Shown piece after piece: positions 9,351 through 28,818 of a DNA stretch of 62,016 nt (positions within the stretch are counted from its first letter, which is position 1; every line of letters starts with the position of its first letter). Made by a program: the position numbers and the translations under genes. The stretch comes from Candidatus Omnitrophota bacterium (GTDB lineage Bacteria; Omnitrophota; Gorgyraeia; Ghiorseimicrobiales; Ghiorseimicrobiaceae). Location of the stretch: NCBI GenBank assembly GCA_030681595.1, contig JAUXSB010000036.1:1-62016 (forward strand). The letters run 5' to 3'. The notes beneath the pieces were generated by a model, which had not been told where the DNA came from, searched no databases, and saw nothing but the letters and a program-made list of their open reading frames with translations.

Positions 9351-10918
9351 TTCTTCTCGCCAGACGGGGGATTAGATATAGAAGTCAACGATTTTTTATA
9401 ATATTCCACCGCACTCTTGCGGTCGCCTAAACTCTGGCCGTAGATAACCGCTAAGTTGTAATAAACATCGCGGTCTTCTTCGGTCCCCTTTATGGCCTGC
9501 TTATATTCTTCCGCGGCACGTTCAAATTGAGCAATCTTGGCATAAAGAAAACCTAAATTGTAATGCACATCCTTATTTTCTTTATCATATTTTAAAGCTT
9601 CTACATATTCCTCTATAGCATATTTATATAAGCCTTTGCGTGCGTATAAAAATCCTAGATTTATGTGGATTTGGCTGTCTAATTTAATCTCGCTGGATAC
9701 CAAATCAAGTTGCCGTAAATCAGTGGTGGCAATTTTCTGCAGCGAAGTTAATACGGCATTTTCCCTTTCCAGAACGCCGACTTTACTTTTAAGCTCTAGT
9801 GTATTTTTCTGCTCTGAAAAATTTTTCTCCTGAAGCTTACTTAATTCTTTGGTTAGGCTTACATTTATTTCTTTAAGCGCTTCTGTATCTGCCAATGCCC
9901 GCTTTAATTTCTGCGCAGGCTCCTTCTCTTCCCGGGATTTAAGCTGCTTAGTCAAGTTAGCATTTGTTTCCTTAAGAGACTTTATCTCCGCCTGCGCCTG
10001 CTGGAGCCGGGAAGAAGAATCTGGCACTATCTCTTTTTTCCTGCGTGATTCATCAAACTGCTTAGTCAAGCTAGAGTTAGCTTCTTTGAGAGATACTATC
10101 TCTGCCTTTGTCTGCTCTAATTCGCGGGAAGCTTCCTTTACCGGTTCTTTCTTCCTGCGCACTTCTTCCAATTCTTTAGCCAAGGTGGATTTTTCTTTTT
10201 TGAGCGTATCTATATCCTTAGAGGCCTGCTGGAGCCGGGAAGAAGAATCTGGCACTATCTCTTTTTTCCTGCGTGATTCATCAAACTGCTTAGCCAAGTT
10301 AGAGTTAGCTTCTTTGAGGACATCTACATCTTTTAATGCCTGCTTAAGCTTCTGGGATAATTCCTTCTTTGCCGGGTCTTCTTTGCGTAAATCTGCCAAC
10401 TGACTGCTTAAAGCGGCGTTTTCTTTCTTTAGCAGGGCTATCTCTATAGATGCCTGTTTTAGCCCGGAAGGCTCTACTTTAGAAGCCTTTTTCTGGCGCA
10501 GATGGTCTAATTCCATGGTTAAAGCGGTATTTGATTTTTTTAATGCATCTGCCTCTGCCTGCGCCTGCTGCAGTTTTTGGGAGGTATCCTTTGCCGGTTC
10601 TTTCTTTCTGCGCACTTCTTCCAATTCTTTAGCCAAGGTGGATTTTTCTTTTTTTAGTAACGCTATTTCGGATAGGGCCTGCTTAAGCTTCTGGGATAAT
10701 TCTTCATTAATACCTTTCTTCCTGCGCACTTCTTCCAATTCTTTAGCCAAGGATTCATTCTTTTTATTCAGGACAATGGCTAATTTTTGCGTACGCTCCA
10801 GTTTCTGGCGCAGGCCTTGTTCGTAAAAACTATCGTCGTTCTCTAACGCAGACACGATACCTGTTGCTGTTAAAACCATCATGAAACCGCTGATTAATGT
10901 TAAATATTTTCTGGCCAT
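9347..10918 (-). CDS. secreted or anchored coiled-coil repeat protein with C-terminal TPR repeats (possible PilF/PilW- or FimV-like pilus accessory protein)
   Basis: N-terminal hydrophobic segment. About 350 aa of heptad-rich repeats (KEKSTLAKELEEVRRKKEP..; EANSxLxKQFDESRRKKEIVPDSSSRLQQA). Three TPR units at the end (HINLGFLYARKG.., HYNLGFLYAKIA.., YYNLAVIYGQS..). Confidence 0.6.
   Translation of the reverse strand: MARKYLTLISGFMMVLTATGIVSALENDDSFYEQGLRQKLERTQKLAIVLNKKNESLAKELEEVRRKKGINEELSQKLKQALSEIALLKKEKSTLAKELEEVRRKKEPAKDTSQKLQQAQAEADALKKSNTALTMELDHLRQKKASKVEPSGLKQASIEIALLKKENAALSSQLADLRKEDPAKKELSQKLKQALKDVDVLKEANSNLAKQFDESRRKKEIVPDSSSRLQQASKDIDTLKKEKSTLAKELEEVRRKKEPVKEASRELEQTKAEIVSLKEANSSLTKQFDESRRKKEIVPDSSSRLQQAQAEIKSLKETNANLTKQLKSREEKEPAQKLKRALADTEALKEINVSLTKELSKLQEKNFSEQKNTLELKSKVGVLERENAVLTSLQKIATTDLRQLDLVSSEIKLDSQIHINLGFLYARKGLYKYAIEEYVEALKYDKENKDVHYNLGFLYAKIAQFERAAEEYKQAIKGTEEDRDVYYNLAVIYGQSLGDRKSAVEYYKKSLTSISNPPSGEKK
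9997..10318 (-). repeat. near-identical ~95-bp direct repeats inside the coiled-coil gene
   Basis: 9997-10090 and 10224-10318 differ at only a few positions. A second repeat, ccggttctttcttYctgcgcacttcttccaattctttagccaaggtggatttttctttttt, occurs at 10141-10200 and 10594-10653, with a partial copy at 10713-10752. Confidence 0.9.
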
Positions 10919-10934
10919 TTTTTCCTCTCTTTTT

Positions 10935-12365
10935 CTATTTAATTCTAACCGGCGGACGTATCGGTAACAGCTCTTTCCCTTGGAAAGAGACTGTTTCTTC
11001 GGTCAAATTACGGATTTTATTCATGCGTTCTACCTGCATCAGCTCTGTTGTTGATGTAAGAGCCCCGGAACCAATCAAATGCGGGGTAATAAATATCACT
11101 AATTCTGTCTCGGTAACGCTCTTATCATGGCTCTTAAATAAATTACCCAAAAGCGGTATATCGCCAAGTATCGGTATTTTGGCTTTAGTAAGGCTAAAAT
11201 CTCTCCTGCGCAGCCCTCCTAAGACTATTGTTTCTCCGTCTTTAACCATGACATTGGTCGTGGCCTTACGGTTGGCCACTACAGGCACCCCGCCTACCGG
11301 GTTGCCGCTCTCCGCGCCATACTCTGTATTTACTTCTACGGAAATAAAATTATCCTTGGTAATATGCGGGGTTACCCCCAGTTTTATGCCAATATCCAAA
11401 AACTCGGTTGTGGTAAGCGTACCGCCTCCCTCTGCCTCGCCTGTCGTCTGGTACGGCTTTTTAGTCACGATATCGATTGTTGCTTCCAGATTATCAAGGG
11501 TCACAATACGCGGATTGGCTAAGATCTCTATCTCGGTATTGGTAATAATTGATTGCAGGGTAAAATCTAAATCGGCGCTTTTTAATACCGGATTGCCCCA
11601 CATCGCTGTTGCCCCCCCTGTTACGCTCAACACACTGCCATTTGTAACCTTCCACTTATTACTACCCCCGGCGTTAGGATCCTTAATATTATTCGCCAGC
11701 GTCTCAAGAACGCCCCATTTAAAATTATCGGTAAGCTTTACATCGATTATTAAAGCCTCAATTAATACCTGCGGCGTGTTGATATCCAACTGCAAAGCCA
11801 CTTCTTCAATACGCCTTACCCTTTCTTTTATATCGGTGATAATAAGGCTGTTAGTCCGGATGTCAATATTAGTCTTGCCTCGCGAACTTAAAAGAGAACT
11901 CAACATTCCTTGCACGTCGCTTACCTGGGAAAAATTAAGCCTGATTATCTTGGTTTCAAGGGCGCCGCTTTCCTCTTGCGCATTGCGCCTTCCTAGGCTA
12001 GTAATAATGATAAAGTTACCTTTCTCTATATAAGCCAAATTATAAGTATCTAAGATAACCTCCATGGCTGTTTTCCAGTTGACGTGGGACATTTTTAAAG
12101 TTACCTTTGCCCTCGCATCATCGCTGATAATAATATTTTTGCCGCTAATTTCAGAAAATGCCCGGGCTATATCTTTTATGTCCACATCCCTGTAGTCAAT
12201 ATCAAGAAGTTGGGAGCTATCAACATTCTCAAGGCCTGCTAACGCCACCTGCTCTCCACTAACAGCGTTACCCGCCTCTTCTGCCAAACTCAGCCTCGTA
12301 AAAGCCAGGCAAGCCGCAACAAAAAACAGAATAAATATCCTAAACTTACGCTCTGCTATATTCAT
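10935..12365 (-). CDS. pilQ: type IV pilus secretin PilQ (type II/III secretion system secretin family)
   Basis: 476 aa. Signal peptide, N-domains, and the C-terminal secretin signature ...VVANRKATTNVMVKDGETIVLGGL...IPILGDIPLLGNLFK...TELVIFITPHLI. Confidence 0.88.
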   Translation of the reverse strand: MNIAERKFRIFILFFVAACLAFTRLSLAEEAGNAVSGEQVALAGLENVDSSQLLDIDYRDVDIKDIARAFSEISGKNIIISDDARAKVTLKMSHVNWKTAMEVILDTYNLAYIEKGNFIIITSLGRRNAQEESGALETKIIRLNFSQVSDVQGMLSSLLSSRGKTNIDIRTNSLIITDIKERVRRIEEVALQLDINTPQVLIEALIIDVKLTDNFKWGVLETLANNIKDPNAGGSNKWKVTNGSVLSVTGGATAMWGNPVLKSADLDFTLQSIITNTEIEILANPRIVTLDNLEATIDIVTKKPYQTTGEAEGGGTLTTTEFLDIGIKLGVTPHITKDNFISVEVNTEYGAESGNPVGGVPVVANRKATTNVMVKDGETIVLGGLRRRDFSLTKAKIPILGDIPLLGNLFKSHDKSVTETELVIFITPHLIGSGALTSTTELMQVERMNKIRNLTEETVSFQGKELLPIRPPVRIK

Positions 12366-12430
12366 AGTATCCTCGTTTTCTGCCTAGGGAAGGCATTATC
12401 AGCGCCGAACCCTAAACCGCTTTCGGCAAC

Positions 12431-12850
12431 TCACTCTTTCATTATTAACCTAAAGGTCTTGCCTTCATAACTCAAAGTTACCCCTGTATTATCAATATCT
12501 TCTACTTTAAAGTTATGCCAAATTTGCCCCTCTGTCACAATCTCTTCGTTAATAATCGCCACAGCCTTGCCTTCACGCACCATCAGGCCGCGAAGAGCCA
12601 TCGGAAACATGGCTATTTCTATTTCTTTATCCGGCTTCTTTAACCGGTCATCACCCAGCAGGCTGACAAAGGGATCCCTTAAAACCTTATCTACACCTAT
12701 AACTTCTGCCTTTTCCTCTCTTTTCTTTTCCTCTTTTTGTTCTTCTGCGAAAATATTTGTTTTTATATTAGCAAAATAAACAATAAGCGCAAGCAATAAT
12801 ATATCTATCACCCTGACAATTTTATCTGTGCGTAACGCTGCCTTCATCAT
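12431..12850 (-). CDS. PilP-like small pilus assembly protein
   Basis: 139 aa. N-terminal TM segment, Lys/Glu-rich linker and a C-terminal beta domain (LRGLMVREGKAVAIINEEIVTEGQ...V.L). Position between pilO-like and pilQ. Confidence 0.45.
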   Translation of the reverse strand: MMKAALRTDKIVRVIDILLLALIVYFANIKTNIFAEEQKEEKKREEKAEVIGVDKVLRDPFVSLLGDDRLKKPDKEIEIAMFPMALRGLMVREGKAVAIINEEIVTEGQIWHNFKVEDIDNTGVTLSYEGKTFRLIMKE

Positions 12851-12897
12851 ATCGGCCCAAAATGAAATAAAGCATAAGAATATAATTTAAAACCGTG

Positions 12898-13476
12898 CTA
12901 ATCTGCGCTGAATACGCTTAAAACCAGCGTCACATTGCGTTTTAAGATATCTTTTGTATCTGGTACTATAGTAAGTTCGTCTATCCTAAAAAACCTGTCC
13001 GACTCTTCAATCCGCGCCAAAAACCCTATAAGCTCCCTGTAACCTGCCTTCATCGTGATATTTACGGCATGTTTATACATTAACACCGTGCCTTCTTTAT
13101 TATCCGCCTTCACCGGCTCGGGCGTAAGGCTGGGCCTAATAGAAATAAAATCAACGGCCAATTGTTCGGCTACATGGCTAAGCTTTCCCAGGAAAAAAGT
13201 TATATCTCTCTTCCAAAACAGCCTTTCTTTGCTTTGGGTTATCTCTTGGCTTAAGGTTTCTATCTGTTTTTCCATCTCGGCGTATTGCCTGCGGTAACCC
13301 GAGGCGTCAGGTGCTATCTTTTCCCCTTTTCTAATTTTCGAATTTAACGAAGATAGTTCTTCAACCAGCGGTATAAATATAATGAAAAACCCAATCACCA
13401 AAGCCAAAGCGGCAAAGGCAACTATACCTATAACTATGTATTCCTGCTTTAATGCGCTTTTTTTTGTCAGATACAT
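12898..13476 (-). CDS. pilO: PilO-like pilus assembly protein
   Basis: 192 aa. Single TM, coiled-coil, C-terminal ferredoxin-like region. Gene order is pilN-pilO-pilP-pilQ. Confidence 0.6.
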   Translation of the reverse strand: MYLTKKSALKQEYIVIGIVAFAALALVIGFFIIFIPLVEELSSLNSKIRKGEKIAPDASGYRRQYAEMEKQIETLSQEITQSKERLFWKRDITFFLGKLSHVAEQLAVDFISIRPSLTPEPVKADNKEGTVLMYKHAVNITMKAGYRELIGFLARIEESDRFFRIDELTIVPDTKDILKRNVTLVLSVFSAD

Positions 13477-13512
13477 TCTTTAAATACAGGCAAACCCCGC
13501 TAGATTAATCCG

Positions 13513-14166
13513 TTATTTGATTACCAGGCTTATTTCAAACGCCATTATATCTACCTTAACCCTCTCTACCCTGCCAATCCTTCCCGAAGGGTCGCTGTAT
13601 CCTGCCTCAATATCGCTTTTTTCTAATTTGGTAACCTGACTTATCAAAAGGTCGTTAAAATCAGAGAAAAACTCCTTGTCCTGCTTCATTTTACTAACAA
13701 AAGCGCTTAGGGTGTTTATGGGGGCTATGTTTTCTATGGGCACAAGAAACCCTTTTAAGTTTAAAGCCTCTTTTTGTGCGCCTCTTTGACCCATCCTTAC
13801 AAAACTTATTGCGCTTAGCCCCACCTCTGGCGGCAGAAACGCGCTTATCTGTTTAAGCTTGCTTGACCAAACAAGCCCGCTGGATAAATACCCGCTCAGG
13901 CCGGCTAATTCCTGCTTAAGGCTTACCTGCCTTTTCTTTAAATCTTCTATATTTTCCGACAATAAATCCGATTCTTTCACTTTATCCATCATTTTTGCTA
14001 AAACCTTACCTTCTCTGGCAATCTCAATCCGTATAACAAACCAGACCAGAAAAAACAACAGTATTAAAGAGCCCAGCACCAGCGCCGTTTTACGGATAAG
14101 CAGAATAAGCTCTCCGCTTAATGCCGCAGGGGCTAAATCCGCAGGAAGAAGGTTTATCTTCTGCAC
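13513..14166 (-). CDS. pilN: PilN-like pilus assembly protein
   Basis: 217 aa. The hallmark N-terminal INLLP motif (MQKINLLPADL) followed by a TM helix and coiled-coil. Confidence 0.7.
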   Translation of the reverse strand: MQKINLLPADLAPAALSGELILLIRKTALVLGSLILLFFLVWFVIRIEIAREGKVLAKMMDKVKESDLLSENIEDLKKRQVSLKQELAGLSGYLSSGLVWSSKLKQISAFLPPEVGLSAISFVRMGQRGAQKEALNLKGFLVPIENIAPINTLSAFVSKMKQDKEFFSDFNDLLISQVTKLEKSDIEAGYSDPSGRIGRVERVKVDIMAFEISLVIK

Positions 14167-14168
14167 TT

Positions 14169-14381
14169 TTAGTCCCCTCCGGATAACATCTTGGCAGGCG
14201 ATATCAATTTATTCTTATAATGCAAAATACGCTGGATATCCCTGGAGGTAAAAATACGGTGGTTGTTCCGGTCGCGCCTGACTTCCGGAATTTTCTTACA
14301 TTTAAACCACAAAAATAATGTATTACGCGAAACCCTTACTTTACCTAACACTTCACTGGTAGAATAGAATCTCTGGTTCAT
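14169..14381 (-). CDS. helix-turn-helix DNA-binding protein (excisionase/MerR-like HTH_17 type)
   Basis: 70 aa. YSTSEVLGKVRVSRNTLFLWFKCKKIPEVRRDRNNHRIFTSRDIQRIL fits the HTH_17 pattern. First gene of the pilNOPQ transcription unit. Confidence 0.65.
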   Translation of the reverse strand: MNQRFYSTSEVLGKVRVSRNTLFLWFKCKKIPEVRRDRNNHRIFTSRDIQRILHYKNKLISPAKMLSGGD

Positions 14382-14577: not shown

Positions 14578-14619
14578 AAAAAATCGAGGTTTACCCGATA
14601 AGGCTTTGTGGCGGGACCT
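14578..14619 (-). terminator. intrinsic terminator after the third beta-helix gene
   Basis: Minus strand: AGGUCCCG-loop-CGGG(UAA)ACCU followed by CGAUUUUUUAAUUU, directly after the stop at 14631. Confidence 0.5.
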
Positions 14620-14630: not shown

Positions 14631-16484
14631 TTAATTATCCTGGTAGGAGAGTTCGAGCCAGTTAGATTTGGCGGAATCGATATCAGCCTTCCAGATTAAG
14701 ACCATATTATCGTATATACCGAGGGTGCGGTTCGCCCCCAATTTAGTATTGGCACTATTGGGGATAGTGATGGTACTTGCTGATAGATTTTCTAATATAA
14801 GCAGGTCGCCGTCAGCCTTTCCGTTGGCAATTGCCGTAGTAGTACTTAAGGTATAGCTTGGGTTGGGATCGAAAGGGATATAGCTTGCCGCTCCGGGCGT
14901 TATCGTGCCGCCTGAGCCGGGATTTTGACCTGAAGCCCGCTCAAGAGTAATCTTTTCTTTACCGGTGTATTTGGTGCCGGTACCAGAGTCGCTAATTTTA
15001 GCAGCCGTAAATCCTACCCCGTCAATATAATTAGCAACAAGATAGTTATCATTTTCTAAGGAAGAATTAATTTTTATGCCGTTTACTGCGCCGTCGGCGG
15101 TAGAGCCGCCAATAGAAAAAGATGAAATGAGATTATTATCGGAGTTTCCCTTAATCCAAATCCCAAAGTTACCATCATCGCTGATTAGATTGCCGGTTAG
15201 ATTGTTATTATTAGAGGCAACGACATTGATACTGGCGCAATTAATATCTACTTTTTTGCCATTGGAATATAACAGGTTTGCGGAAATAACGTTGTTGTTT
15301 GAAGAAGACTCCATAGAGATGCCGTTATATGCGTTCTCCTGAATATTATTGCCGGATACAGCATTGCCGGAAGAAGAGTAAAGCCGGATACCAATGCCTT
15401 CCTTCATTTCGCTGGCACTATTATCATATGCCATCCAATGTCTTTGGATATCGTTGGCGGATATAGTATTATTGTTTGATGAGCTAATCATTAGACCGTA
15501 GCCTCCTGACGGGCCAATATGATTACCGGATATAATGTTATTATTAGAAGTACCGAGGACAATATCCTGTAATGCATTATCTTTACAAATATTGCCGGAT
15601 ATAATGTTATTAGCGGAATTTGTCAAGACGAGGCAATAACCTTTGTTACGAAAAATATTATTAGAGATAATATTGCTGTTGGAATTATCAAGCGTTAGGG
15701 CGTAAATATATTCGTCTGGTGCCCCATCCATCCAAACATTATTAATCTTAGATAAAGTCACAGAATTAAAACTTATGCCGACTATACCGTTATAAATCGT
15801 GAGTTGCGAGATGAGTATTCTTGTTACATTTGAGGCGGTAATTCCGTCTATACTAGTGGCAATCTGCAATACCGTGCCTGCGCCTGCGCCAATAAGCGAG
15901 ATGCCGCTTTGCGCAACAGCAGTTGGATTGATAACGATACCTGGCGTTGCAATCGTAACTAAGCCTCCTGTGTCAGGACGAGTATAAGCAAGGTCTGGAG
16001 AAATTTTATCGCTAATATTATAAGTTCCATCCAAAAGATAAACTATGCCCTGTTTTGATTTGTTAACAGGGGTTGTGGCAGAATAAATAATATCAAGGAT
16101 TGCCTGATTTATCTCTTGCTGGTCATCTGTTCCGTCGCAGATATAGTCGGCCCTTTGGGCATCCAAGGAATCGCCTGCGTCATACTGGCCATCCCTATCT
16201 CTGTCCACACCGACTATCTTGGTGGCGACATTTTTATTGGCTGACAACGGTTTCCACTGTGTCCCGTCCCAAACATAAAGCTCCTCATCGATAGAATTAT
16301 AGCGGATTTCGCCTTCGGAACCTGAACCCAAAGTAGAGATATCCACACTATCTAAGCTTACGGTTTTAGCCTTCGTATCGCCAACCACGGTAATGTCTTC
16401 GCCAGCGGCAAAAATCAGGCCACAGGCCACAGGCTGTAGGCTGCAGGCTAAAAAGAAAATTAAAATTAGTTTAGTTAGCTTCAT
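14631..16484 (-). CDS. secreted right-handed parallel beta-helix repeat protein, paralog 1
   Basis: Sec signal peptide MKLTKLILIFFLACSLQPVACGLIFAAG. Many NNIISGN/NNxISxN beta-helix coils. Shared family blocks ADYICDGTDDQQEINQAI, VYLLDGTYNIS, LIGAGAGTVL, ILISQL, TKYTGKEKITLE, and a C-terminal GDLLILEN...LIW...WLEL module. Confidence 0.8.
   Translation of the reverse strand: MKLTKLILIFFLACSLQPVACGLIFAAGEDITVVGDTKAKTVSLDSVDISTLGSGSEGEIRYNSIDEELYVWDGTQWKPLSANKNVATKIVGVDRDRDGQYDAGDSLDAQRADYICDGTDDQQEINQAILDIIYSATTPVNKSKQGIVYLLDGTYNISDKISPDLAYTRPDTGGLVTIATPGIVINPTAVAQSGISLIGAGAGTVLQIATSIDGITASNVTRILISQLTIYNGIVGISFNSVTLSKINNVWMDGAPDEYIYALTLDNSNSNIISNNIFRNKGYCLVLTNSANNIISGNICKDNALQDIVLGTSNNNIISGNHIGPSGGYGLMISSSNNNTISANDIQRHWMAYDNSASEMKEGIGIRLYSSSGNAVSGNNIQENAYNGISMESSSNNNVISANLLYSNGKKVDINCASINVVASNNNNLTGNLISDDGNFGIWIKGNSDNNLISSFSIGGSTADGAVNGIKINSSLENDNYLVANYIDGVGFTAAKISDSGTGTKYTGKEKITLERASGQNPGSGGTITPGAASYIPFDPNPSYTLSTTTAIANGKADGDLLILENLSASTITIPNSANTKLGANRTLGIYDNMVLIWKADIDSAKSNWLELSYQDN
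16416..16449 (-). repeat. CAGGC/GCCTG word repeat inside the signal-peptide coding region of beta-helix paralog 1
   Basis: caggccacaggccacaggctgtaggctgcaggct encodes part of the hydrophobic core (SLQPVACGL). Confidence 0.7.
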
Positions 16485-16498
16485 CTATTTGTCTCCCG

Positions 16499-16575
16499 CT
16501 TCAAGCTCCAAGCCGTATGTTTTAAGCCTGAAGCTTGCGGCTTTGGCTAATTGGAAGCCAAACCACTGCCCTCTG
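16499..16575 (-). repeat. two adjacent word hairpins: a CAAGC/GCTTG type, plus a GGCTTTGGCT..AGCCAAACC unit related to the terminal tandem repeat
   Basis: cttcaagctccaagccgtatgttttaagcctgaagcttg, followed by ggctttggctaattggaagccaaaccactgcc. Compare ggctttggctaagcggaaagccaaaccattgcc at 61909-62016. Confidence 0.75.
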
Positions 16576-16589
16576 GCTTGCGGCTATGA

Positions 16590-18428
16590 TTACTCGCTCA
16601 ACCCAAGCCATTGGGTGCCGTTCCAAATTAATTCCAAAACATCATCATTGTCCAACGCCCTGTTAGCTCCTATATCAACATTGCCGCCGTTTTGTACAGT
16701 TATTGGATCCAACAGGCTTAGATCTTTACATCTTAAGATTAAAAGGTCTCCCTGACTTTTTCCATTTTCCAGAGTAATAGTTTGGTCACTACCGCTTATA
16801 TTATTAAGAATAATGTGGCTTGACGGCGAATACACCGGAGATCCTGAAGTTTTGCCTGCCGGATATACTATTTGGCCGCTGGCTGTTATATCAACTGTTA
16901 TCGGCTCAAAGGTGATTTTTTCCTTGCCGGTATATTTTGTGTTTACACCCAAGTCGTCTATCTTATTTGTGGCAAATGCTGCACCGGTTATATAATTAGT
17001 TACCAGGTAATTATTGTCGGAATTGGAAGGAATCTTTATCCCATATCCTGTGCCGACAGAATCATAGATTAAATTTCCGGAAATCAAATTATTATCATAC
17101 TTATCGTCTGCTGCTCCTGATGCCCCATCCACGAAAATACCATTGAAAGCGCCTGTTTGGCCATTATCATAAAGCGCGTTTCCGGAAATAAGCTGGCCTA
17201 CTCCGGCGTTAAACAAGATACCCTCATGCCGGTTATTGGCAATCACGTTATTGCTGATTATTGAATAATTGGGAATTTTCCCCCATGGCGAATCAGGAAG
17301 CCCCGGATTAACATCTTTATCCCCCCATAAAGCAATCCCTTCTCTTGCGCCGCCGGTTACAGAGTTTCCAGATACAATAGAACGGTCGCCATCAGCCCAG
17401 ATGCCGCCGGTCTTATTAGCGGAAACAATATTATTAGAAATTATATTGTTCGTGCCCGCGTCCCAAAGAGAGGCATATATTTCAGATGGATCATCTTCTG
17501 GAGCTCCGCCAACATCTCCACCAATGAGTATATTATCGGAAACAATGTTATTCTGCGAACTTCGTCCGAGATACAGTTCACCCTCGCTGCAGCGGCTAAT
17601 ATAGTTATGAGAAACGATGTTATTGCTGGAAGTGCCGACCAGCTCAAGGCCATCGGCGTTTTCGCTAGGATTACCCAAATCAATATGTGCGTTACTAATA
17701 ATATTATTGTTGGAGTTCGTACAATAAATACCCGCTCTGCCGCCTTGCGTGCCTCTTATCCAAACTTTATCAATTTTAGAGTAAGTTACGTTATCAAAAT
17801 ATATACCGGCGGATTTCGTCTCGCTGCCGTCAAGCTGAAGTTGAGAGATTAAAAGATTACTCGCCGAGGTAGCGTTGATAATGTAGTATTGTGTTTCGGC
17901 GGCACTTCTTTTTTTAAGTATTGTCCCATTGCCTGCGCCAATCAAGGAGATATTGTTTCTATTTAAAATAATCCCCGCGTTATCTTGTGTCTGGCCTGAT
18001 TGCATAGTAATATCGTAAGTGCCTTCTAACAAATATACTGCGCCGCCTGAGGCAGGACAAGCGGCAATTGCCGCATTAATCTTTACCTGATCATCCGTGC
18101 CGGTACATTGATAAGACGCCTCTGCCTTGTTTTTATCTAAAGAGTCGCTGGCGGCGACAATGATAGTGGCGACGTTCATAGGAAGAGCGATGGTATTCCA
18201 TTGGGCCGCGTCTGAAATATATACGTCATTCTCGGTAGTATCATAATAAATCTGGCCTTCCGGGCCGGCGGGGCTAGGGGCACTTGTCTTTGGCGTTAAA
18301 TATAAGCTAGGCGTATCTATGTCGCCGTCAACGGATAGCTTCTGGGCAAAGGCAGAAGAAACACTGCCGGCAACCACTAACCAGTAACCAGTAACCAGTA
18401 AAATTGTTGTTAGTCTATTTAGCTTCAT
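16590..18428 (-). CDS. secreted right-handed parallel beta-helix repeat protein, paralog 2
   Basis: The ORF is open to 18455, but MKLNRLTTILLVTGYWLVVAGSVSSAFA (start 18428) is a typical signal peptide. Blocks SYQCTGTDDQVKINAAI, VYLLEGTYDIT, LIGAGNGTIL, LLISQL, NNIISN repeats, TKYTGKEKITFE, and a C-terminal GDLLILR...LIWNGTQWLGL. Confidence 0.8.
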   Translation of the reverse strand: MKLNRLTTILLVTGYWLVVAGSVSSAFAQKLSVDGDIDTPSLYLTPKTSAPSPAGPEGQIYYDTTENDVYISDAAQWNTIALPMNVATIIVAASDSLDKNKAEASYQCTGTDDQVKINAAIAACPASGGAVYLLEGTYDITMQSGQTQDNAGIILNRNNISLIGAGNGTILKKRSAAETQYYIINATSASNLLISQLQLDGSETKSAGIYFDNVTYSKIDKVWIRGTQGGRAGIYCTNSNNNIISNAHIDLGNPSENADGLELVGTSSNNIVSHNYISRCSEGELYLGRSSQNNIVSDNILIGGDVGGAPEDDPSEIYASLWDAGTNNIISNNIVSANKTGGIWADGDRSIVSGNSVTGGAREGIALWGDKDVNPGLPDSPWGKIPNYSIISNNVIANNRHEGILFNAGVGQLISGNALYDNGQTGAFNGIFVDGASGAADDKYDNNLISGNLIYDSVGTGYGIKIPSNSDNNYLVTNYITGAAFATNKIDDLGVNTKYTGKEKITFEPITVDITASGQIVYPAGKTSGSPVYSPSSHIILNNISGSDQTITLENGKSQGDLLILRCKDLSLLDPITVQNGGNVDIGANRALDNDDVLELIWNGTQWLGLSE

Positions 18429-18490
18429 CTCTGCCTCGTTTTTAACGCATAACACACTTGCCCGCCGAAGCTTTGTGGCGGGTAGCGCGG

Positions 18491-20371
18491 CTAATTATCC
18501 GCATGGACCAACTCAAGCCATGCCGTGCCGTTCCAGATAAACTTTGAGGTAGTGTTTTTGCTCCATGTCCGGTTATTATCACTACCGCGAATCTCAAAAT
18601 TACTACCGCATATTGATTCATCTCCCACTCTGATAGAATAAGACGATGTGTTTTCTATAATGAGCAGGTCGCCTAATGCCTTGCCGTCATCAATTGCGGC
18701 AAGGCCGGGAAGGGGTAGCGTAGGATCGCCTAGCGTAACATCTGCGCTTCCGTTAACACTTAACCGAAGATAAGTTACTGGACCGGTGCCGGTAGAAGAA
18801 AGGTCAATTTTGCCCCCATTAACAACGGTATAAGTAACCGGCTCAAGGGTAATTTTGTCTTTACCGGTGTATTTGGTGTTGGTGCCGGAGTCATTTATTC
18901 TTCTATCGTATCCGCTACCAACGTATCCTGCGCCGTCAATATAATTGCCTGTAAGATAATTATTAGCACTTTCGGGAGAAACAATATATACGCCATACTT
19001 GCCATTAGCGCCGCCTGCGGCTTTATATATCCGGTTGGAAGAAATCGTATTATCATCAATTCCCGACTCAAGCACAATACCAAAATAGTTCGGCTCGTAA
19101 ATAATATTTCCGTAGATTGAATTACTACCGGCGCTTGACCTCCAAATATAAACCCCAGAATTTCCTGCTTCCTCTATAATATTATTATGGATCAAGTTGT
19201 TCTTAGCATATTCAATCAGAATACCCTGACCCATGGTATCTGTATTGTTAAATTTAATTATATTGCCGGAAATAATATTGTTATCGCAAGGGTAGTATGT
19301 AGAAGGGGCGAGATAATAAGCGAGGAGCTTAATGCCGGTTGCGCCGCCGGTAGTCATATCAATGGAATTATTAGAAATAACGTTACTGGTAGTAAGTTGA
19401 AGAAAAATACCGGTTGAGCCTACCCCCCCAATGGTATTGGCAGAAACAGTATTGTTTGTGCTGGCTGGCGGGTTAGCCATGCTGCCGTAGATTAATACCG
19501 CGAAGCCATTGCTGTAAAACACATTATTATGAATAGTGTTATTGGAAGATCCGACAAGAGATAACCCATTATTATTATTATAAAAATGATTATCGCAGAC
19601 AATGTTCATATTAGAAGAGGAAATAATTACAGCTTGATCTCCTCCGCCAAGTATATTTTCTACCCATACCGCGCTAATCTTAGAATTGGTTACACCGCTA
19701 AAAGACATACCTGTATTAGTACCCCCAAAATCGCCACTGCCGTCAATTCTAAGCTGGGAAATAAGAATATTACTGATATTACTTGCTTTAATAACGCCGT
19801 CTATGCCTTCGAGAACTTGTTTTAGCACTGTGCCTGCGCCGGTGCCGATTAGGGCCTTACCGGAATCCGTGGTGCCACTGGCACCGGTATTATCAAAATT
19901 TATCGAGCCCGATATATTATAAGTCCCTTCCAAAAGATAGATTACTCCCGGTATCTTATTACCTGAAGTATCCACTAATGAATCTATGGCCGCATTTATC
20001 TCGGCTTGGTCGTCTGTGCCGTCACAGATGTAATCCGCGGTTTTATTGGTAAGCCGGGAATCTAAAGCCGGAACTGCGGGGTTGCGAGTTACCCCCACAA
20101 TCCTTGAAGCAATGGTTTTGCCGCCAGCGACTGCATCCCAGCCTGTGCCGTCGGAAACATAAACTTTGTCATTCTGGTAAACCACTCTTCCGCCAGTTCC
20201 GTCTCCCTTTTGAGCGGGAGAAGTTGTTTGCTCAACAAAAGTCGCGGTCTCCGTCTTAAGCTTTCCGCCACTTTCAACGGCAAGGTCGGCGGAAAACAGA
20301 GGAACGAATGACGAAAGGAGAAAGACGAAAATAAAAAATACGCTTGTGCTAATTGATTTACCCGCTTTCAT
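18491..20371 (-). CDS. secreted right-handed parallel beta-helix repeat protein, paralog 3
   Basis: The ORF is open to 20437, overlapping the upstream gene. MKAGKSISTSVFFIFVFLLSSFVPLFSA (start 20371) is the likely signal peptide. Blocks ADYICDGTDDQAEINAAI, VIYLLEGTYNIS, LIGTGAGTVL, ILISQL, TKYTGKDKITLE, and a C-terminal GDLLIIEN...FIWNGTAWLEL. Confidence 0.8.
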   Translation of the reverse strand: MKAGKSISTSVFFIFVFLLSSFVPLFSADLAVESGGKLKTETATFVEQTTSPAQKGDGTGGRVVYQNDKVYVSDGTGWDAVAGGKTIASRIVGVTRNPAVPALDSRLTNKTADYICDGTDDQAEINAAIDSLVDTSGNKIPGVIYLLEGTYNISGSINFDNTGASGTTDSGKALIGTGAGTVLKQVLEGIDGVIKASNISNILISQLRIDGSGDFGGTNTGMSFSGVTNSKISAVWVENILGGGDQAVIISSSNMNIVCDNHFYNNNNGLSLVGSSNNTIHNNVFYSNGFAVLIYGSMANPPASTNNTVSANTIGGVGSTGIFLQLTTSNVISNNSIDMTTGGATGIKLLAYYLAPSTYYPCDNNIISGNIIKFNNTDTMGQGILIEYAKNNLIHNNIIEEAGNSGVYIWRSSAGSNSIYGNIIYEPNYFGIVLESGIDDNTISSNRIYKAAGGANGKYGVYIVSPESANNYLTGNYIDGAGYVGSGYDRRINDSGTNTKYTGKDKITLEPVTYTVVNGGKIDLSSTGTGPVTYLRLSVNGSADVTLGDPTLPLPGLAAIDDGKALGDLLIIENTSSYSIRVGDESICGSNFEIRGSDNNRTWSKNTTSKFIWNGTAWLELVHADN

Positions 20372-20417
20372 TGCTACATCCTTTGTTCTATTAATTTTTC
20401 GCTTTTCATTTTTAATT

Positions 20418-21311
20418 TTACTGTATCCCCACCCCACCCATGGTACTTGTGCCCGCGCCGGATATGGTGACTGAACCAGTGATAATACTTCTATTTAAAC
20501 CTGTGTTGCGCGAGGCATCGGTAAAATTATAGCTGTATCCGCCTTTAATAGTTACGCCTTGGCCGATAGTAACGTTTTCCCATGTCAAGGTTTCTGCGGA
20601 AATCCTAATCTCATGGTCATTGGTTGCCGCGGTAAGATTATCTACCGCTGATGGCGACTCAAGCGGAGAATCAAGCGTATCATGCAACCTTTCTATTTCC
20701 ACAAAAGCCCTTGTCGCCGGGATTACCTTTACCAAAGCCAGCGATTTTATTCTGGCGAGCTGGGTTAAAGTTACCTGGTCCTTAATGCTACCGTCGCTAT
20801 TATATACTTTGCCCGTTGACCTTACCCAAAGGCGACCCGGGACAAAAGTATTAGCACTAGCTACGGTCTTACCAAATGCTATCTTCACCGTATACTTACC
20901 GACAGAATTTGCCGCATCGGGAAAATCCACATCAACATAAAAATCTTGGTAATCAGAACGGATATCGCTGGGGTCATCCGGGTCTGTGCCGGCGGAAGAC
21001 GGACTAGGCACTGCGGCGGCCACCCTATTAATCTTATTGTTAGAATTAGCTACGGTGCCGTTAGCCGCGCCGCCTGTCCCATCTGCCCAGCTTTTATCTT
21101 TGTCATACTCGCAGGATAAATCAATAAACGCCTGCTCAAGGCCGGCTCTGGCGATATATTCAGCAGAGCCTGTAGCCATTTCATGCTCCGCTCTCTTGCG
21201 CTCGCTGATAGTCATCGCCACATAGGCGGTCAAAAGGGCGCTTACCATCGTTACTACGATGATCGCCATAATTAACGCCATACCCTTATTGTTCTTTCTT
21301 GGTTTATTCAT
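20418..21311 (-). CDS. PilX-like minor pseudopilin
   Basis: 297 aa. N-terminal KGMALIMAIIVVTMVSALLTAYVAMTI hydrophobic helix typical of the PilX_N domain. Lies in a pseudopilin gene row. Confidence 0.6.
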   Translation of the reverse strand: MNKPRKNNKGMALIMAIIVVTMVSALLTAYVAMTISERKRAEHEMATGSAEYIARAGLEQAFIDLSCEYDKDKSWADGTGGAANGTVANSNNKINRVAAAVPSPSSAGTDPDDPSDIRSDYQDFYVDVDFPDAANSVGKYTVKIAFGKTVASANTFVPGRLWVRSTGKVYNSDGSIKDQVTLTQLARIKSLALVKVIPATRAFVEIERLHDTLDSPLESPSAVDNLTAATNDHEIRISAETLTWENVTIGQGVTIKGGYSYNFTDASRNTGLNRSIITGSVTISGAGTSTMGGVGIQ

Positions 21312-21389: not shown

Positions 21390-22058
21390 TTAGTTCCTAA
21401 AATCCACCCTTGCGGACATGGGTACGCTCAAAGCGGGAATATTACCCCTTTGCATTGCTTTGCTTGCGATTACGGTTATGGTCAAAGAATTTCCGGATAA
21501 GGTAAACTGTACACTGCTAATATCGTTGGCTAAAATCCTTCTTTTAGATATATCCAGGCCTCCTCCTGACGAAAAATTATCCCTGATAAACTGGTTTGGT
21601 TTACTGTCAGTACCTACATAATACTTAAGCTGGCCGTTTAGGTTAGTCCCAGATTCGCCTCCATCGCCCCAGACAATATTGCCTAAAGCATCTATCCCTT
21701 GAGACCCCTTTAGCGGTATCATAAAAGCTATTTCGCTTACCAAAACACCCTCTGAAAAAGGAACATTATAGGCAGGGGGCGGGCTAGGATTCAACGTAGC
21801 GGTATCGTATACCCGCGCCTTGCTGGAAAGGCCAAGCTCGCCAACCATCTTACTTAAGGCCTGATTTGCCTGCGCGGAAAGATAAGCTTTAGTAGTACCC
21901 ATACTCAGCGAGATATCATAAATACGCATTGCGCCGAAGGTAACGCCGGAAACAATGGTGAGGATAGAAACGGTCACCAGAATTTCCATAAGAGTAAATC
22001 CTCTTCTTCGTTTAGCGTTTAGCGTATAGCGTATAGCGTATAGTAAAGAATAAATCAT
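21390..22058 (-). CDS. pseudopilin with prepilin-type N-terminal cleavage/methylation domain
   Basis: ...AKRRRG/FTLMEILVTVSILTIVSG is the class III signal peptide (G|F, Glu at +5). It has an unusually long 20-aa leader, MIYSLLYAIRYTLNAKRRRG. Confidence 0.8.
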   Translation of the reverse strand: MIYSLLYAIRYTLNAKRRRGFTLMEILVTVSILTIVSGVTFGAMRIYDISLSMGTTKAYLSAQANQALSKMVGELGLSSKARVYDTATLNPSPPPAYNVPFSEGVLVSEIAFMIPLKGSQGIDALGNIVWGDGGESGTNLNGQLKYYVGTDSKPNQFIRDNFSSGGGLDISKRRILANDISSVQFTLSGNSLTITVIASKAMQRGNIPALSVPMSARVDFRN

Positions 22059-22063: not shown

Positions 22064-23623
22064 CTACTCTCTCCCCAAATAAACCTGTGACGGATAGCCC
22101 CGGCTAGCAAGTATCCCGGTAACGTGCACCGGCGAATCTAAAAAGCCGTTTCCGTTAACGTCTTCTGTTTCCGCGCCGGCTCCAAAAGTATCCAATCCGC
22201 CATTTAATGCCTTAGGCAAATCTTCACTGGCATATCCTTGCTTGCCATTGTCTTCGCCGATAATTCTTCCTTTGTTATCCCGAAAAGCGACCGTGATATC
22301 TACCTGATACATCCGGTCCGCGCCGTATGACATCCAATTATTCCCGGTAACTCCGCCGCCGAGTATCCAAAGCCTGCCATAAAAAACAACCGCGTCAAAG
22401 CCACCGGCTGCCCAGGAAGGAACAGCGGAAAGAATCCATTTTATACCATCCGAGGAATACCAAATTTGCCTAAGGTTAGTAGCGCCATCATTACCGCCGA
22501 CAACCCAGATTTTTCCGTCCAAGACAACCGCCCGATGCATGTATCTCGGGATCCAGGCAGCGTTGGCTACCTGCGTCCAGCTTACCCCATCTGAAGAATA
22601 CCAAACATCATTAAGATAACCGCTACTGCCCTTACCGCCTAAAACCCAGATTTTGTTATCAAAGACCACCGCGGCATGATGATATCTCGCGCTCCAGGCA
22701 GCGTCGGCAACCCGTGTCCAGGTCGCTCCATCTGAAGAATACCAAACATCATTACGGTAGCCGCTAGTATCCCGGCCGCCGAATACCCAGATTCTCCCAT
22801 CATATACAAGTGCGGTATGCCCGTCTCGCGCGGTCCATCCTGCGTTAGAAGTTTTCGCATACCATGCCTGCTTGCCATCAGCTAAATCGGCATCACTAAC
22901 CTCCGGCGTATACCAGACATCATTTAACAGGTTTCCCCAGCCCATATCGCCGCCAAGAATAAAAATTCCATTATCAAAATTCACGGCGGGAAAAGAGAAT
23001 CTGCCGGGCCATATGCCTGAACCCAGCGGAGTAACATCAAAAACTAAGGTTTGCACCCAAGCCCAAGTCTTAGCATCGAAATAATGACGGTTATCATAAA
23101 CGATACCGCACTCATTGCCGCCAAGTACCCAGATTTTTGCACCGGTTGTGCTATCACCTTGCGTTACTACAGCGGCGGGATTATAAATATAGGCATCAAC
23201 AGTAAGATTCGGGCCTGCTGTCCAGGTATCATAAATATCCGTAAGCCTGATATTCCCCATGGCGTATTTATTATTTGCGCTATCGCGCAGTGGAAAAATC
23301 CGATTTATATAGAGCATCTCTGCCGTGTCTCCGTCGCCGTCAATATCAGTTACGTCCATTTGATTTGTATCATACCAATCAAAAAGCTTGCGGAAATTCA
23401 TTGCCCGCATTTCCTCCAGCTTCGCCTTTGCTGCCTGTAAAACTGTGGATTGCTTCTGGGTAGTTTCGCTTAAATTTTGGGTAACATTAAAAGAAGTTAA
23501 TGTGGCGGTAAGAAAAACGATCAAAATACCCATAGAAGCAAGGGTCTCAACGAGGGTAAAACCGCTTCTTCGTTTAGCGTATAGCGTATAGCGTATAGCG
23601 TATAATAATAGGCCCGCAGTCAT
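22064..23623 (-). CDS. pseudopilin carrying a large Kelch-type beta-propeller insertion
   Basis: Leader MTAGLLLYAIRYTLYAKRRSG/FTLVETLASMGILIVF (prepilin motif). Then about six Kelch-like blades, e.g. DGRIWVFGGRDTSGYRNDVWYSSDGATWTRVADAAWSARYHHAAVVFDNKIWVLGGKGSSGYLNDVWYSSDGVSWTQV... Asp-rich loops DIDGDGD and EDVNGNGFLD. Confidence 0.8.
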   Translation of the reverse strand: MTAGLLLYAIRYTLYAKRRSGFTLVETLASMGILIVFLTATLTSFNVTQNLSETTQKQSTVLQAAKAKLEEMRAMNFRKLFDWYDTNQMDVTDIDGDGDTAEMLYINRIFPLRDSANNKYAMGNIRLTDIYDTWTAGPNLTVDAYIYNPAAVVTQGDSTTGAKIWVLGGNECGIVYDNRHYFDAKTWAWVQTLVFDVTPLGSGIWPGRFSFPAVNFDNGIFILGGDMGWGNLLNDVWYTPEVSDADLADGKQAWYAKTSNAGWTARDGHTALVYDGRIWVFGGRDTSGYRNDVWYSSDGATWTRVADAAWSARYHHAAVVFDNKIWVLGGKGSSGYLNDVWYSSDGVSWTQVANAAWIPRYMHRAVVLDGKIWVVGGNDGATNLRQIWYSSDGIKWILSAVPSWAAGGFDAVVFYGRLWILGGGVTGNNWMSYGADRMYQVDITVAFRDNKGRIIGEDNGKQGYASEDLPKALNGGLDTFGAGAETEDVNGNGFLDSPVHVTGILASRGYPSQVYLGRE

Positions 23624-23633: not shown

Positions 23634-23674
23634 AAAATAAAAATGCCATCTGCCGAAGAATTCTAGCAAATGGC
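23634..23674 (-). terminator. intrinsic terminator forming the expression platform of the riboswitch candidate
   Basis: Minus strand: GCCAUUUGCU-(10-nt loop)-GGCAGAUGGC followed by AUUUUUAUUUU, immediately before the SD AGGAG (23629-23633) and the ATG at 23623. Confidence 0.65.
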
Positions 23675-23694
23675 TTCTTGTGTGCATTGCTTCC

Positions 23695-23780
23695 TTCGGC
23701 AATTCAGCCATCCGCCAACGTACTGTGGTGGATCTGTAATTTTGCGCCCCCTGATTACTCAGGGTTTGCCTTTTCGAGAA
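23695..23780 (-). promoter_or_regulatory. candidate c-di-GMP-I (GEMM-I) riboswitch aptamer
   Basis: Minus strand: AAAAGGCAAACC CUGA-GUAA-UCAG GGGGCGCAAAAUUACAGAUCCACCACAGUACGUUGGCGGAUGGCUGAAUUGCC. It has the GGCAAACC core, a 4-bp helix capped by a GNRA tetraloop, the GGGRCGCAAA junction and a second bulged helix, as in the V. cholerae Vc2 aptamer. Confidence 0.65.
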
Positions 23781-23995: not shown

Positions 23996-25210
23996 TTAAT
24001 GCCCTAACTTCTTAATAATCTCCAGGATCGGCAAAAACATCGAGAGGGCAATCGTGGCAACTATGCCTCCCAAAAAAATGATTAACAACGGCTCTATTAA
24101 AGACATTAAAGCCCCGATAGCCGCATCCGCTTCACTTTCATAAAAATCCGCGATTTTATCCAACATCGGCGAAATACTACCCGTTTCCTCCCCCACCGTA
24201 ATCATATCTACAACCAGGGGGGCAAAAACGCCCTTGCCTGAGGCTTTAAGCGAATCACCGATTTTTTCACCCCGCGAAACCCGGGCCCTGGCACCCATAA
24301 GCCCTTTTTCTACTACCATATTATCAGCAGTTTTGGCTACTATTTCTAATCCATTAATGATGGAAATACCGCTCTTAACCAAGGTGGCCAAGGTGCGGGC
24401 AAAACGCGCGATCACTACCTTAAGGATAATATTGCCGAACACCGGCGTCTTTAAACACGCCCTATCAAAATTATAGCGGCCGGTTTCGCTACGGACATAC
24501 AGCCTGAGGGCAATAACAATCGCGGCTATCGCTGCCAAAAGATACGGATAAAACCCGCGGATAAGATCGCTTATCTTAATTACTATCTGCGTAGGCAGCG
24601 GCAGTTCGATTTGCAGGGAAACAAACATCTCCCGAAACGATGGGATTACTTTAATAAAAATAAAGGATGTGATTAAGACCGACATAGCAACTACTATCGC
24701 CGGATAAATTAAAGCCCCCTTCAATTTACGGGCGAGCTTATCTATTTCTTCTAAGTAACCGGCCATTTTTTCTAAGATCAAATCCAAGGCACCCCCCATC
24801 TCGCCGGCCTTGACCATATTGACATAGATAGAAGAGAATACGCGCGGATGAGCCGCCATTGCCTCAGAAAGGCTGCGCCCGGATTCAATATTAACCTGCA
24901 GGGAGTTAACCATCTTTTTTAAAGTCTTGTTTGTTACCTGATCATGGATAATGCTTAATCCTTTAACTAGAGGCACCCCGGCTTTAACCAGTGTGGCAAG
25001 CTGGCGAGAAAACACTACCAGCTCATTTAGCTTTACCCCTTTTTCTCTGCTAAGAAAAGACATGCCTTCGGCTTTTATTTCGTTAACAGAGACGATTGTT
25101 ACCGGCTCCTTTCTTAAAAAAGAAATGACGCTGGCACGATCGCGGGATTCTACTTCGCCTTGAATACGCTGGTTTTTGACATTAATAATACTATATTTAA
25201 ACTTGGACAT
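23996..25210 (-). CDS. pilC: type IV pilus / T2SS platform protein PilC (GspF family)
   Basis: 404 aa. Duplicated GspF domains and three TM segments. Motifs LATLVKAGVPL and LATLVKSGISI. Confidence 0.9.
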   Translation of the reverse strand: MSKFKYSIINVKNQRIQGEVESRDRASVISFLRKEPVTIVSVNEIKAEGMSFLSREKGVKLNELVVFSRQLATLVKAGVPLVKGLSIIHDQVTNKTLKKMVNSLQVNIESGRSLSEAMAAHPRVFSSIYVNMVKAGEMGGALDLILEKMAGYLEEIDKLARKLKGALIYPAIVVAMSVLITSFIFIKVIPSFREMFVSLQIELPLPTQIVIKISDLIRGFYPYLLAAIAAIVIALRLYVRSETGRYNFDRACLKTPVFGNIILKVVIARFARTLATLVKSGISIINGLEIVAKTADNMVVEKGLMGARARVSRGEKIGDSLKASGKGVFAPLVVDMITVGEETGSISPMLDKIADFYESEADAAIGALMSLIEPLLIIFLGGIVATIALSMFLPILEIIKKLGH

Positions 25211-25211
25211 T

Positions 25212-26840: not shown

Positions 26841-26843
26841 TTA

Positions 26844-26990: not shown

Positions 26991-26991
26991 T

Positions 26992-28651: not shown

Positions 28652-28662
28652 ATCTTATGGGC

Positions 28663-28816: not shown

Positions 28817-28818
28817 CT

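Follow-up and report, generated by a model that had tools for sequence, protein, structure and literature searches.

The idea that beta-helix proteins are linked to pili or to type II secretion systems (T2SS) is not new. Substrates of the T2SS can be encoded beside their system, as is the case for the Out pectate lyases of Dickeya and for pullulanase PulA. Tapirins of Caldicellulosiruptor bind cellulose through a beta-helix, and their genes neighbour a type IV pilus locus; their conserved N-terminal part is proposed to serve cell association, and their variable beta-helix binds the polysaccharide (bioRxiv 10.1101/359786). In the predator Bdellovibrio, mosaic adhesive trimer (MAT) chimeric fibres with conserved and variable parts recognise diverse prey (PMC10769870). 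Here we describe a 62-kb stretch of Candidatus Omnitrophota DNA (contig JAUXSB010000036.1; the whole stretch is called the window) that carries an array of three tandem genes, labelled A, B and C in transcription order, inside a single minus-strand type IV filament gene cluster. Each gene encodes a Sec-type signal peptide and a protein with a tailspike-like beta-helix fold. The array is linked to the same operon in related genomes, its genes have evolved as mosaics, and a riboswitch of the cyclic di-GMP (c-di-GMP) type lies ahead of it. The fold and the C-terminal domain were known before. The searchable literature gives no description of a conserved tailspike-like array of 3-6 copies in an Omnitrophota filament operon, of strain-level cassette exchange in such an array or of a riboswitch ahead of it; that literature is incomplete, and an earlier description is possible.

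Omnitrophota are widespread, uncultured and ultra-small bacteria that are thought to live on other cells or to feed on them as predators. Host-dependent or predatory lifestyles have been argued for them, as has a near-universal presence of type IVa pili (T4aP) in the phylum (PMC10066038). Type IV pili together with giant proteins have been implicated in their interaction with hosts (PMC10066038; bioRxiv 10.1101/2023.11.21.568195).

The closest described systems each share part of the properties of the array. Like tapirins, A, B and C have a beta-helix and are linked by gene position to a type IV pilus locus, next to which they are encoded. Unlike tapirins, which belong to Gram-positive Firmicutes without a secretin, the array consists of 3-6 tandem paralogs within the operon and undergoes cassette exchange. 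The 33 profile matches in the PDB include no tapirin, and neither do the 50 Foldseek matches shown, the presence of tapirins in those libraries being unchecked. T2SS substrates are Sec-exported, periplasm-folded and polysaccharide-active, many of them are beta-helix proteins, and they leave through a secretin and pseudopilus to which they can be genetically linked; for the array, this mode of export is a prediction. In contrast to a T2SS, the machinery encoded beside the array has a PilMNOP-type alignment complex and Kelch-fused pseudopilins, and none of its proteins reaches an equivalog cut-off for GspE, GspF or GspD. The array proteins also differ from T2SS substrates in that catalytic residues are not identifiable, and hypervariable centres are not a feature of those enzymes. 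With the MAT proteins of Bdellovibrio the likeness is an analogy only, as these have a fibre fold, no pilus operon and no sequence relationship to the array.

The three beta-helix genes and their products

The array comprises the following features.

18491-20371, minus strand: beta-helix paralog A, 626 amino acids (aa) from ATG 20371; the open reading frame (ORF) reaches GTG 20437
16590-18428, minus strand: beta-helix paralog B, 612 aa from ATG 18428; ORF 16590-18455
14631-16484, minus strand: beta-helix paralog C, 617 aa from ATG 16484
14583-14599, minus strand: terminator-like hairpin with a 6-bp stem and a T-run, after gene C

An earlier note, made from the sequence of the window, had described three tandem paralogs of 610-630 aa separated by short spacers. 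The three genes stand, on a strand corrected to minus. B and C are each 39% identical to A, with more than 120 invariant columns in the alignment, and the spacers measure 46 nucleotides (nt) between the upstream gene and A, 62 nt between A and B, and 105 nt between B and C. The genes are co-directional and each has its own ribosome-binding site. Shine-Dalgarno-like sequences (AAGGA, GAGG and GGGAG) lie 5-9 nt before ATG 20371, ATG 18428 and ATG 16484, respectively, which are the likely true starts; initiation at GTG 20437 would make A overlap the upstream gene.

Every block that the note had listed as common to the paralogs is present in the alignment. The blocks are G.I.Y...Y..D...W, Y.C.GTDDQ..IN.AI, YLL.GTY.I, LIG.G.GT.L and LISQL, followed by NNI(I/V)S coils, TKYTGK.KIT.E and GDLLI...IW....WL.L. 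The conserved C-terminal module is likewise real, with a length of about 110-130 aa in place of the proposed 70 or so. The terminator that had been placed after the last gene fared less well. It consists of only the 6-bp stem and T-run, shuffled versions of the region fold at least as well (z = +1.85), and the hairpin is a weak terminator candidate. GC-rich stem-loop sequences that resemble each other (CCCGCCACAAAGC...) occur 3' of the stop codons of A (18458-18482) and C (14591-14615), where they could be elements of RNA processing or stability.

The N-termini of A, B and C combine a basic start, a hydrophobic core and an A-x-A-like site, in agreement with the Sec signal peptides claimed for them. 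This type of signal peptide is found in 55 of 67 family members, and the other 12 look like mis-called starts. The prepilin motif (class III signal peptide) occurs in none of the 67. Anchoring as lipoproteins was rejected, as a lipobox-like string is present in just five of the 67 members and is unconserved. Exoproteins of the type II pathway carry a Sec or Tat signal, as the array proteins do, and these would be expected to fold in the periplasm.

Domain architecture and fold

Each protein is built of a family-specific N-terminal motif, a right-handed beta-helix of 12-13 coils (NosD/AlgE-like) and a C-terminal PF25692-like module. The Pfam families NosD (PF05048) and Beta_helix (PF13229), of the right-handed parallel beta-helix/CASH superfamily, match A, B and C with 50.8-77.6 bits, against cut-offs of 23.6-25.9. 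PF25692, a beta-sandwich of phage depolymerases, is found in B (39.5-42.5 bits) and C (26.0 bits) above its cut-off of 25, and in A at 23.3 bits, slightly under it. An AlphaFold2 model of B, based on a 67-sequence alignment, has a mean predicted local distance difference test (pLDDT) score of 86. It consists of a signal helix, a three-stranded N-terminal mini-domain bearing the G.I.Y...DG..W motif, an N-cap helix, a regular right-handed beta-helix of three-strand coils and a C-terminal beta-sandwich.

The top Foldseek matches of this model in the PDB are the A-modules of AlgE4 and AlgE6, ORF18 of Geobacillus virus E2, the RbmB lyase, the HK620 tailspike and GH87 glucanases, with a probability of 1.00 for AlgE4, the HK620 tailspike and RbmB. 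Against viral models, the top matches are tail fibre, tailspike and exopolysaccharide-depolymerase proteins. A PDB profile search agrees with Foldseek, its best matches including AlgE4, AlgE6 and AlgG. The expectation of a beta-helix or tailspike fold, together with the Foldseek comparison proposed for it, came from the earlier note, and Pfam, AlphaFold2 and Foldseek all agree with it.

Phage tailspikes and depolymerases (HK620; the PF25692 depolymerases of Klebsiella and Acinetobacter phages) resemble the array proteins in having a right-handed beta-helix followed by a PF25692 sandwich, a short conserved N-terminal module, conserved ends with exchanged centres, and paralogs side by side. The array differs from them by its position in a chromosomal type IV filament operon and by its Sec signal peptides, and a viral contig scan with the family alignment, limited to back-translated patterns, found no relatives. 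Tailspikes are trimers with an N-terminal particle-binding domain; the N-terminal module of the array proteins has only a weak match to phrog_15511 (E = 2e-4, in C). This module has no Pfam match, and within the window its motif is confined to A, B and C. A profile of the module, about 60 aa long, gave no match at E <= 0.001 among 5.8 billion proteins, the domain being too short for a database of that size.

The conserved termini had been proposed as a recognition or docking module. A profile search with the C-terminal module also finds PF25692 as small stand-alone proteins in phage morphogenesis gene clusters, among terminase, portal, adaptor and connector genes:

L103, 8001-8531: stand-alone PF25692 protein, 176 aa
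L104, 8001-8672: stand-alone PF25692 protein, 223 aa

The C-terminal module is therefore not a pilus-specific docking module. The DGTDDQ..IN.AI and VYLLEGTY blocks align with residues 16-50 of AlgE4/AlgE6 and are a generic N-cap. What remains as family-specific is the G.I.Y...DG..W motif.

The array proteins share the N-cap (GxxDDxxxIQxAI...GGxVYLPxGxY) and Asn-ladder coils with AlgE4/AlgE6, AlgG and NosD. They differ in having other N- and C-terminal modules and in lacking R-modules. In the AlgE6/AlgE4 profile alignment, the region of the AlgE catalytic motif YG(F/I)DPH(D/E) faces non-conserved positions of the family. An epimerase function was rejected because this motif is absent, and a NosD function because no nos genes (nosZ, nosF, nosY, nosL) lie within the 62-kb window or the related loci. 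Conservation of the centre across the family is limited to the Asn/Ile/Gly ladder.

Conserved linkage to a type IV filament operon

A word-indexed search found about 65 full-length relatives, nearly all of them in Omnitrophota-type metagenome-assembled genomes (MAGs) or metagenomes, and often several per contig. Among the best 150 matches of an exhaustive hidden Markov model search, about 75 are proteins of about 600 aa matched in a single stretch, and many others are proteins of 2,000-7,000 aa with multiple beta-helix stretches. Partial matches in Saccharibacteria, Chloroflexi and archaea cover the generic N-cap and coils only and were rejected as family members.

In the window, the array follows three pseudopilin-like genes and precedes those for a MerR-like helix-turn-helix (HTH) protein, PilN, PilO, the secretin and PilM, and so is embedded in a pseudopilin operon as first described. 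The earlier note had set homologs scattered away from pilus and T2SS genes against its own proposal. Full-length homologs show no such scatter: at all of the approximately 12 independent loci with readable flanks, the array adjoins genes of the same type IV filament operon. Three copies are the commonest array size, and arrays of four or six copies also occur. The array occupies one of three slots:

Between the ATPases and PilC: L099, L098, L015
Between PilC-HTH and the Kelch pseudopilin: L011, L013, L014
Between the PilX-like gene and HTH-PilN: the window, L009, L091

In L096 (ATPases followed by the array) and L092 (PilX-like gene followed by the array) the contig ends inside the array, and only the upstream side is seen. 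The occurrence of the array in three different slots indicates that the linkage has survived rearrangement. The HTH protein, which is without an effector domain, is 91% identical in the closest long relative (L009) and about 70% identical in distant loci, and its gene, the most conserved one of the locus, travels with the array, always immediately before or after the beta-helix genes. In a neighbour-joining tree of the conserved termini, genes cluster by position 1, 2 or 3 within lineages. This grouping shows that the triplet is old and did not arise by recent duplication. Both the linkage and the positional orthology persist across lineages in which the secretin is just 37-40% identical. The Kelch pseudopilin was of no use as an operon marker, as unspecific Kelch proteins of many phyla overwhelmed the co-occurrence scan.

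Array-type beta-helix units are repeated in the proteins of 2,000-7,000 aa, some of which also appear to have the N-terminal motif region. Two such large proteins are encoded in the Omnitrophota single-cell genome L003 (758-12352 and 14017-20574). L003 was rejected as a case of scattered homologs, as its matches are segments of these proteins of 3864 and 2185 aa. The repeated units suggest a link to the giant proteins of Omnitrophota.

In several loci, toxin-antitoxin-type or small genes lie between or beside the paralogs:

L013, 7114-7969: AbiEii genes
L014, 7329-8184: AbiEii genes
L015, 19583-21192: HEPN/nucleotidyltransferase toxin-antitoxin
L001, 4952-5835 and 7676-8274: unannotated small ORFs at positions equivalent to the toxin-antitoxin insertions

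The array may be a hotspot for insertions.

Exchange of helix centres between close relatives

The centres of the helices are swapped as cassettes between close relatives. Protein identity of the filament machinery between the window and L009 is 80-92% overall; by tblastn it is 91% for the 542-aa ATPase, 92% for PilC, 88% for PilN, 89% for PilO, 85% for the secretin, 87% for PilM and 91% for the HTH protein. The corresponding values for the array proteins are 54% (A), 63% (B) and 51% (C). In A and C, the termini are 70-88% identical to L009 and residues of about 240-440 only 12-32%, and the syntenic L009 ortholog is not even among the best matches of these centres. The hyperdivergent segments are:

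19010-19870, minus strand: central cassette of A, about 37-46% nt identity to L009, with flanks of 75-84%
15050-16080, minus strand: central cassette of C, synonymous sites saturated in comparison with L009

The breakpoints are sharp: over a few hundred bases, nucleotide identity declines from about 78% to about 40%, at 19870 and 19010 in A and at 16080 and 15070 in C. In comparison with L009, the machinery genes have a synonymous divergence (dS) of 0.28-0.67 and the beta-helix genes one of 0.9-1.8, and synonymous sites are saturated in the centres of both A and C. Since neighbouring genes should share dS, the saturated centres indicate replacement by divergent alleles and not just fast amino-acid change. 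The termini are under purifying selection, as seen from a ratio of nonsynonymous to synonymous divergence (dN/dS) of 0.06-0.25.

A second comparison comes from L187, a metagenome contig of 1,450 nt. From PilN through the HTH gene and the intergenic region into the C-terminal part of C, it is 92-100% identical to the window at the nucleotide level. Identity is down to about 50% upstream of about 15050; the break falls exactly at the TKYTGK block, and in-frame beta-helix coils with another sequence go on beyond it. The best match of the L187 centre among the sampled alleles is at most 48%.

The simplest mechanism would be ordinary homologous recombination anchored in the conserved blocks. It is favoured by the absence of inverted repeats and of long identical repeats among the paralogs, and by the absence of the reverse-transcriptase family from Pfam scans of the large ORFs of the window. 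A diversity-generating retroelement and invertible DNA were rejected on the same findings, namely no reverse transcriptase in the Pfam scans and no inverted repeats.

A riboswitch ahead of the array

A riboswitch lies in the 372-nt intergenic region between PilC/GspF and the Kelch pseudopilin, upstream of the pseudopilin and beta-helix unit.

23694-23779, minus strand: aptamer of the c-di-GMP-I clan (GEMM-I) in Rfam, best match the GGC variant RF03167, 61.3 bits (gathering threshold 59)
23634-23674, minus strand: expression platform, with a terminator hairpin at 23645-23674 (GCCAUUUGC...GCAGAUGGC) and a U-tract, 5' of the ribosome-binding site

At the orthologous position in L009 (4821-4902), the canonical family RF01051 matches with 63.2 bits. 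The core and platform of the two riboswitches are almost identical, and their variable hairpin shows compensatory changes. By family match the aptamer is of the c-di-GMP type, and c-di-GMP is the putative ligand of the RF03167 GGC variant class. Folding indicates that the 3' strand of P1 in the aptamer can alternatively pair with part of the terminator hairpin, forming an anti-terminator. Because the P1 strand competes for the hairpin, ligand binding is predicted to favour termination, which would make the riboswitch an OFF switch. Elsewhere in the operon are genes for a GGDEF protein and two MshEN domains. The locus thus appears to be wired to cyclic-dinucleotide signalling at three levels: riboswitch, GGDEF and MshEN.

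Possible functions of the array

The explanation that we favour, with slightly more confidence than doubt, is that A, B and C are Sec-exported, glycan-binding and possibly glycan-cleaving partners of the filament machine, with exchangeable specificity cassettes. The minor pseudopilins and A, B and C, which in the window and in L009 are headed by the c-di-GMP-type riboswitch, would be co-transcribed, to judge from gene order and spacing. The three proteins would pass the inner membrane by the Sec pathway and fold in the periplasm into an N-terminal mini-domain, a beta-helix of 12-13 coils and a C-terminal beta-sandwich. The filament machine, made up of two c-di-GMP-sensing PilB/GspE-like ATPases, PilC, Kelch-tipped pseudopilins, PilMNOP and the secretin, would then either release them through the secretin in the manner of a type II system or bear them on the tip of its pseudopilus. 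Outside the cell, the exposed face of the central helix would bind, and perhaps cut, the surface polysaccharide of host or prey cells. The termini would serve as a constant scaffold and the centre as an exchangeable specificity cassette, for whose replacement homologous recombination would use the conserved blocks as anchors, resembling the way in which phages swap the receptor-binding domains of their tailspikes. The swapping of middle parts between relatives is as expected for the recognition of the surfaces of other cells. From these features we infer export by the filament machine, glycan ligands and a role in host recognition, which would fit the host-dependent or predatory lifestyle proposed for Omnitrophota (PMC10066038).

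Several points weigh against this explanation. Secretion, surface display and glycan binding are predicted here from genes alone. The mode of export cannot be read from the genes, as models of T4aP and T2SS score equally, and the window contains no major pilin and no recognisable retraction ATPase. The centre of the helix is without an Asp, Glu or His conserved across the family; any enzymatic activity is therefore putative, and the proteins may just as well only bind. L187, which gives the strongest evidence of a swap, is one short contig of low coverage with a probable frameshift, and the evolution of gene B is far more uniform than that of A and C. The riboswitch was detected in the window and L009 only.

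A possible but doubtful alternative is that A, B and C are non-catalytic adhesins on the tip or side of the filament, similar to tapirins or PilY1, and that their N-terminal motif docks on the Kelch or GspK-like pseudopilins. It overlaps with the favoured explanation, from which it differs in that the proteins would be bound and not released and would bind but not cut; the three paralogs would be three specificities. The lack of conserved catalytic residues in the centre suits this alternative, as do the conserved, family-specific N-terminal module without a Pfam match and the precedent of tapirins, in which a conserved N-terminus is combined with a variable, binding beta-helix (bioRxiv 10.1101/359786). 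The genomic context cuts both ways: two of the three operon layouts place the array next to pseudopilin genes, but in one third of the loci the ATPases and PilC flank it, at a distance from the pseudopilins. Neither a pilin-like N-terminus nor an anchor is present in the proteins, and their nearest folds are mostly enzymes, which also argues against tip adhesins.

A more speculative and unlikely idea is that the triplet forms an exchangeable tailspike module, possibly a heterotrimer joined through the conserved N- and C-terminal modules, on the Kelch tip. The filament would then be a phage-tail-like pilus by which an ultra-small episymbiont or predator recognises and penetrates the host surface, with a host range set by cassette swaps and with the riboswitch as its gate.

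It is improbable that the proteins are enzymes for the cell's own exopolysaccharide, that is, periplasmic or secreted epimerases or lyases (AlgG-, AlgE- or RbmB-like) of a polymer that exits through the secretin, on the pattern of slime secretion that depends on a secretin. The active region of such a housekeeping enzyme should not be replaced between near-identical strains, and the epimerase catalytic motif is unconserved. Genes for glycosyltransferases or polysaccharide export are absent from the operon and from the rest of the 62-kb window. In favour of such enzymes, c-di-GMP control is typical of exopolysaccharide systems, and a secretin can be used to export a polymer (PMC12475490). The C5-epimerases AlgE4, AlgE6 and AlgG and the RbmB lyase, as the best matches in sequence and fold, point in the same direction.

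It is very improbable that the array consists of phage tailspike genes, domesticated or hitch-hiking, that are functionally unconnected with the operon and sit in a region that is simply a hotspot tolerant of insertions: the phage-type C-terminal domain, the AbiEii and HEPN/nucleotidyltransferase modules inserted between copies in several loci and the varying slot within the operon would suit this idea, but no phage genes flank any array, the array lies in the core chromosome with dnaA and the origin at a distance of about 30 kb, the scan of viral contigs limited to back-translated patterns gave no relatives, linkage and positional orthology are kept while the secretin is 37-40% identical, and the termini are constrained (dN/dS 0.06-0.25).

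The locus provides testable candidates for determinants of host specificity in Omnitrophota. If the favoured explanation is true, the array is a cellular counterpart of cassette evolution in phage tailspikes. Its alleles could then be a marker for predicting host range from metagenomes, and the array could be a source of new glycan-binding or glycan-degrading specificities.

The filament operon and its chromosomal surroundings

The remainder of the filament cluster in the window is as follows.

23996-32865, minus strand: upstream part of the cluster, with GGDEF-AAA-HEAT, MshEN, two PilB/GspE-like ATPases and PilC/GspF
Within it, first in transcription order, minus strand: GGDEF-AAA-HEAT protein, 1348 aa
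Then, minus strand: stand-alone MshEN domain, 152 aa, followed by a PilB/GspE-like ATPase, 406 aa
Then, minus strand: MshEN-PilB/GspE-like ATPase, 542 aa, followed by the PilC/GspF platform protein
22064-23623, minus strand: Kelch-propeller pseudopilin, 519 aa, with prepilin motif RSG|FTLVE (N_methyl)
21390-22058, minus strand: minor pseudopilin, 222 aa, with N_methyl motif
20418-21311, minus strand: PilX_N/GspK-like pseudopilin-type protein, 297 aa, without Glu5
14169-14381, minus strand: MerR-like HTH protein, 70 aa, directly 3' of the array
8304-14166, minus strand: PilN-like protein (INLLP motif), PilO, a 139-aa PilP/T2SSB-like protein, a 476-aa secretin, a TPR protein and PilM

The NCBIfam scores of the machinery are nearly equal for T4aP and T2SS models and lie under every equivalog cut-off. 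The system is therefore called a type IV filament system, and neither a T2SS nor a T4aP. The prepilin motif is found in just two ORFs of the window, neither of them in the array. The two proteins concerned, the Kelch pseudopilin and the 222-aa pseudopilin, share an unusually long conserved leader (..LLYAIRYTL.AKRR.G|FTL.E). L009 carries two genes of the Kelch-pseudopilin type. In the Kelch pseudopilin, a PilY1-like tip adhesin and a pseudopilin may be combined in one protein. In 25212-32865, which covers the GGDEF-AAA-HEAT protein and the two ATPases, one ATPase has its c-di-GMP-binding MshEN domain split off as a 152-aa gene, which overlaps the ATPase gene by 20 nt. This split is conserved in the distant loci L011, L014 and L015 and is therefore no frameshift artefact.

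The rest of the window is core chromosome, with genes for pyrimidine biosynthesis and dnaA, dnaN, gyrB, gyrA, yidC, parAB and thrS. The region of about 47270-49325 is probably the replication origin, since dnaA and dnaN (minus strand) face yidC and parAB (plus strand) there and the GC skew changes sign near 48-49 kb. The filament operon is 15-40 kb from this putative origin. Two long ORFs have no Pfam match:

34574-39040, minus strand: ORF of 1488 aa
3486-4724, minus strand: ORF of 412 aa

An intein that carries an HNH endonuclease domain interrupts the gyrB gene (41966-45706, minus strand; ORF of 1246 aa). The closest relatives of the GyrA protein are found in MAGs of Candidatus Omnitrophota, with 81-87% identity.

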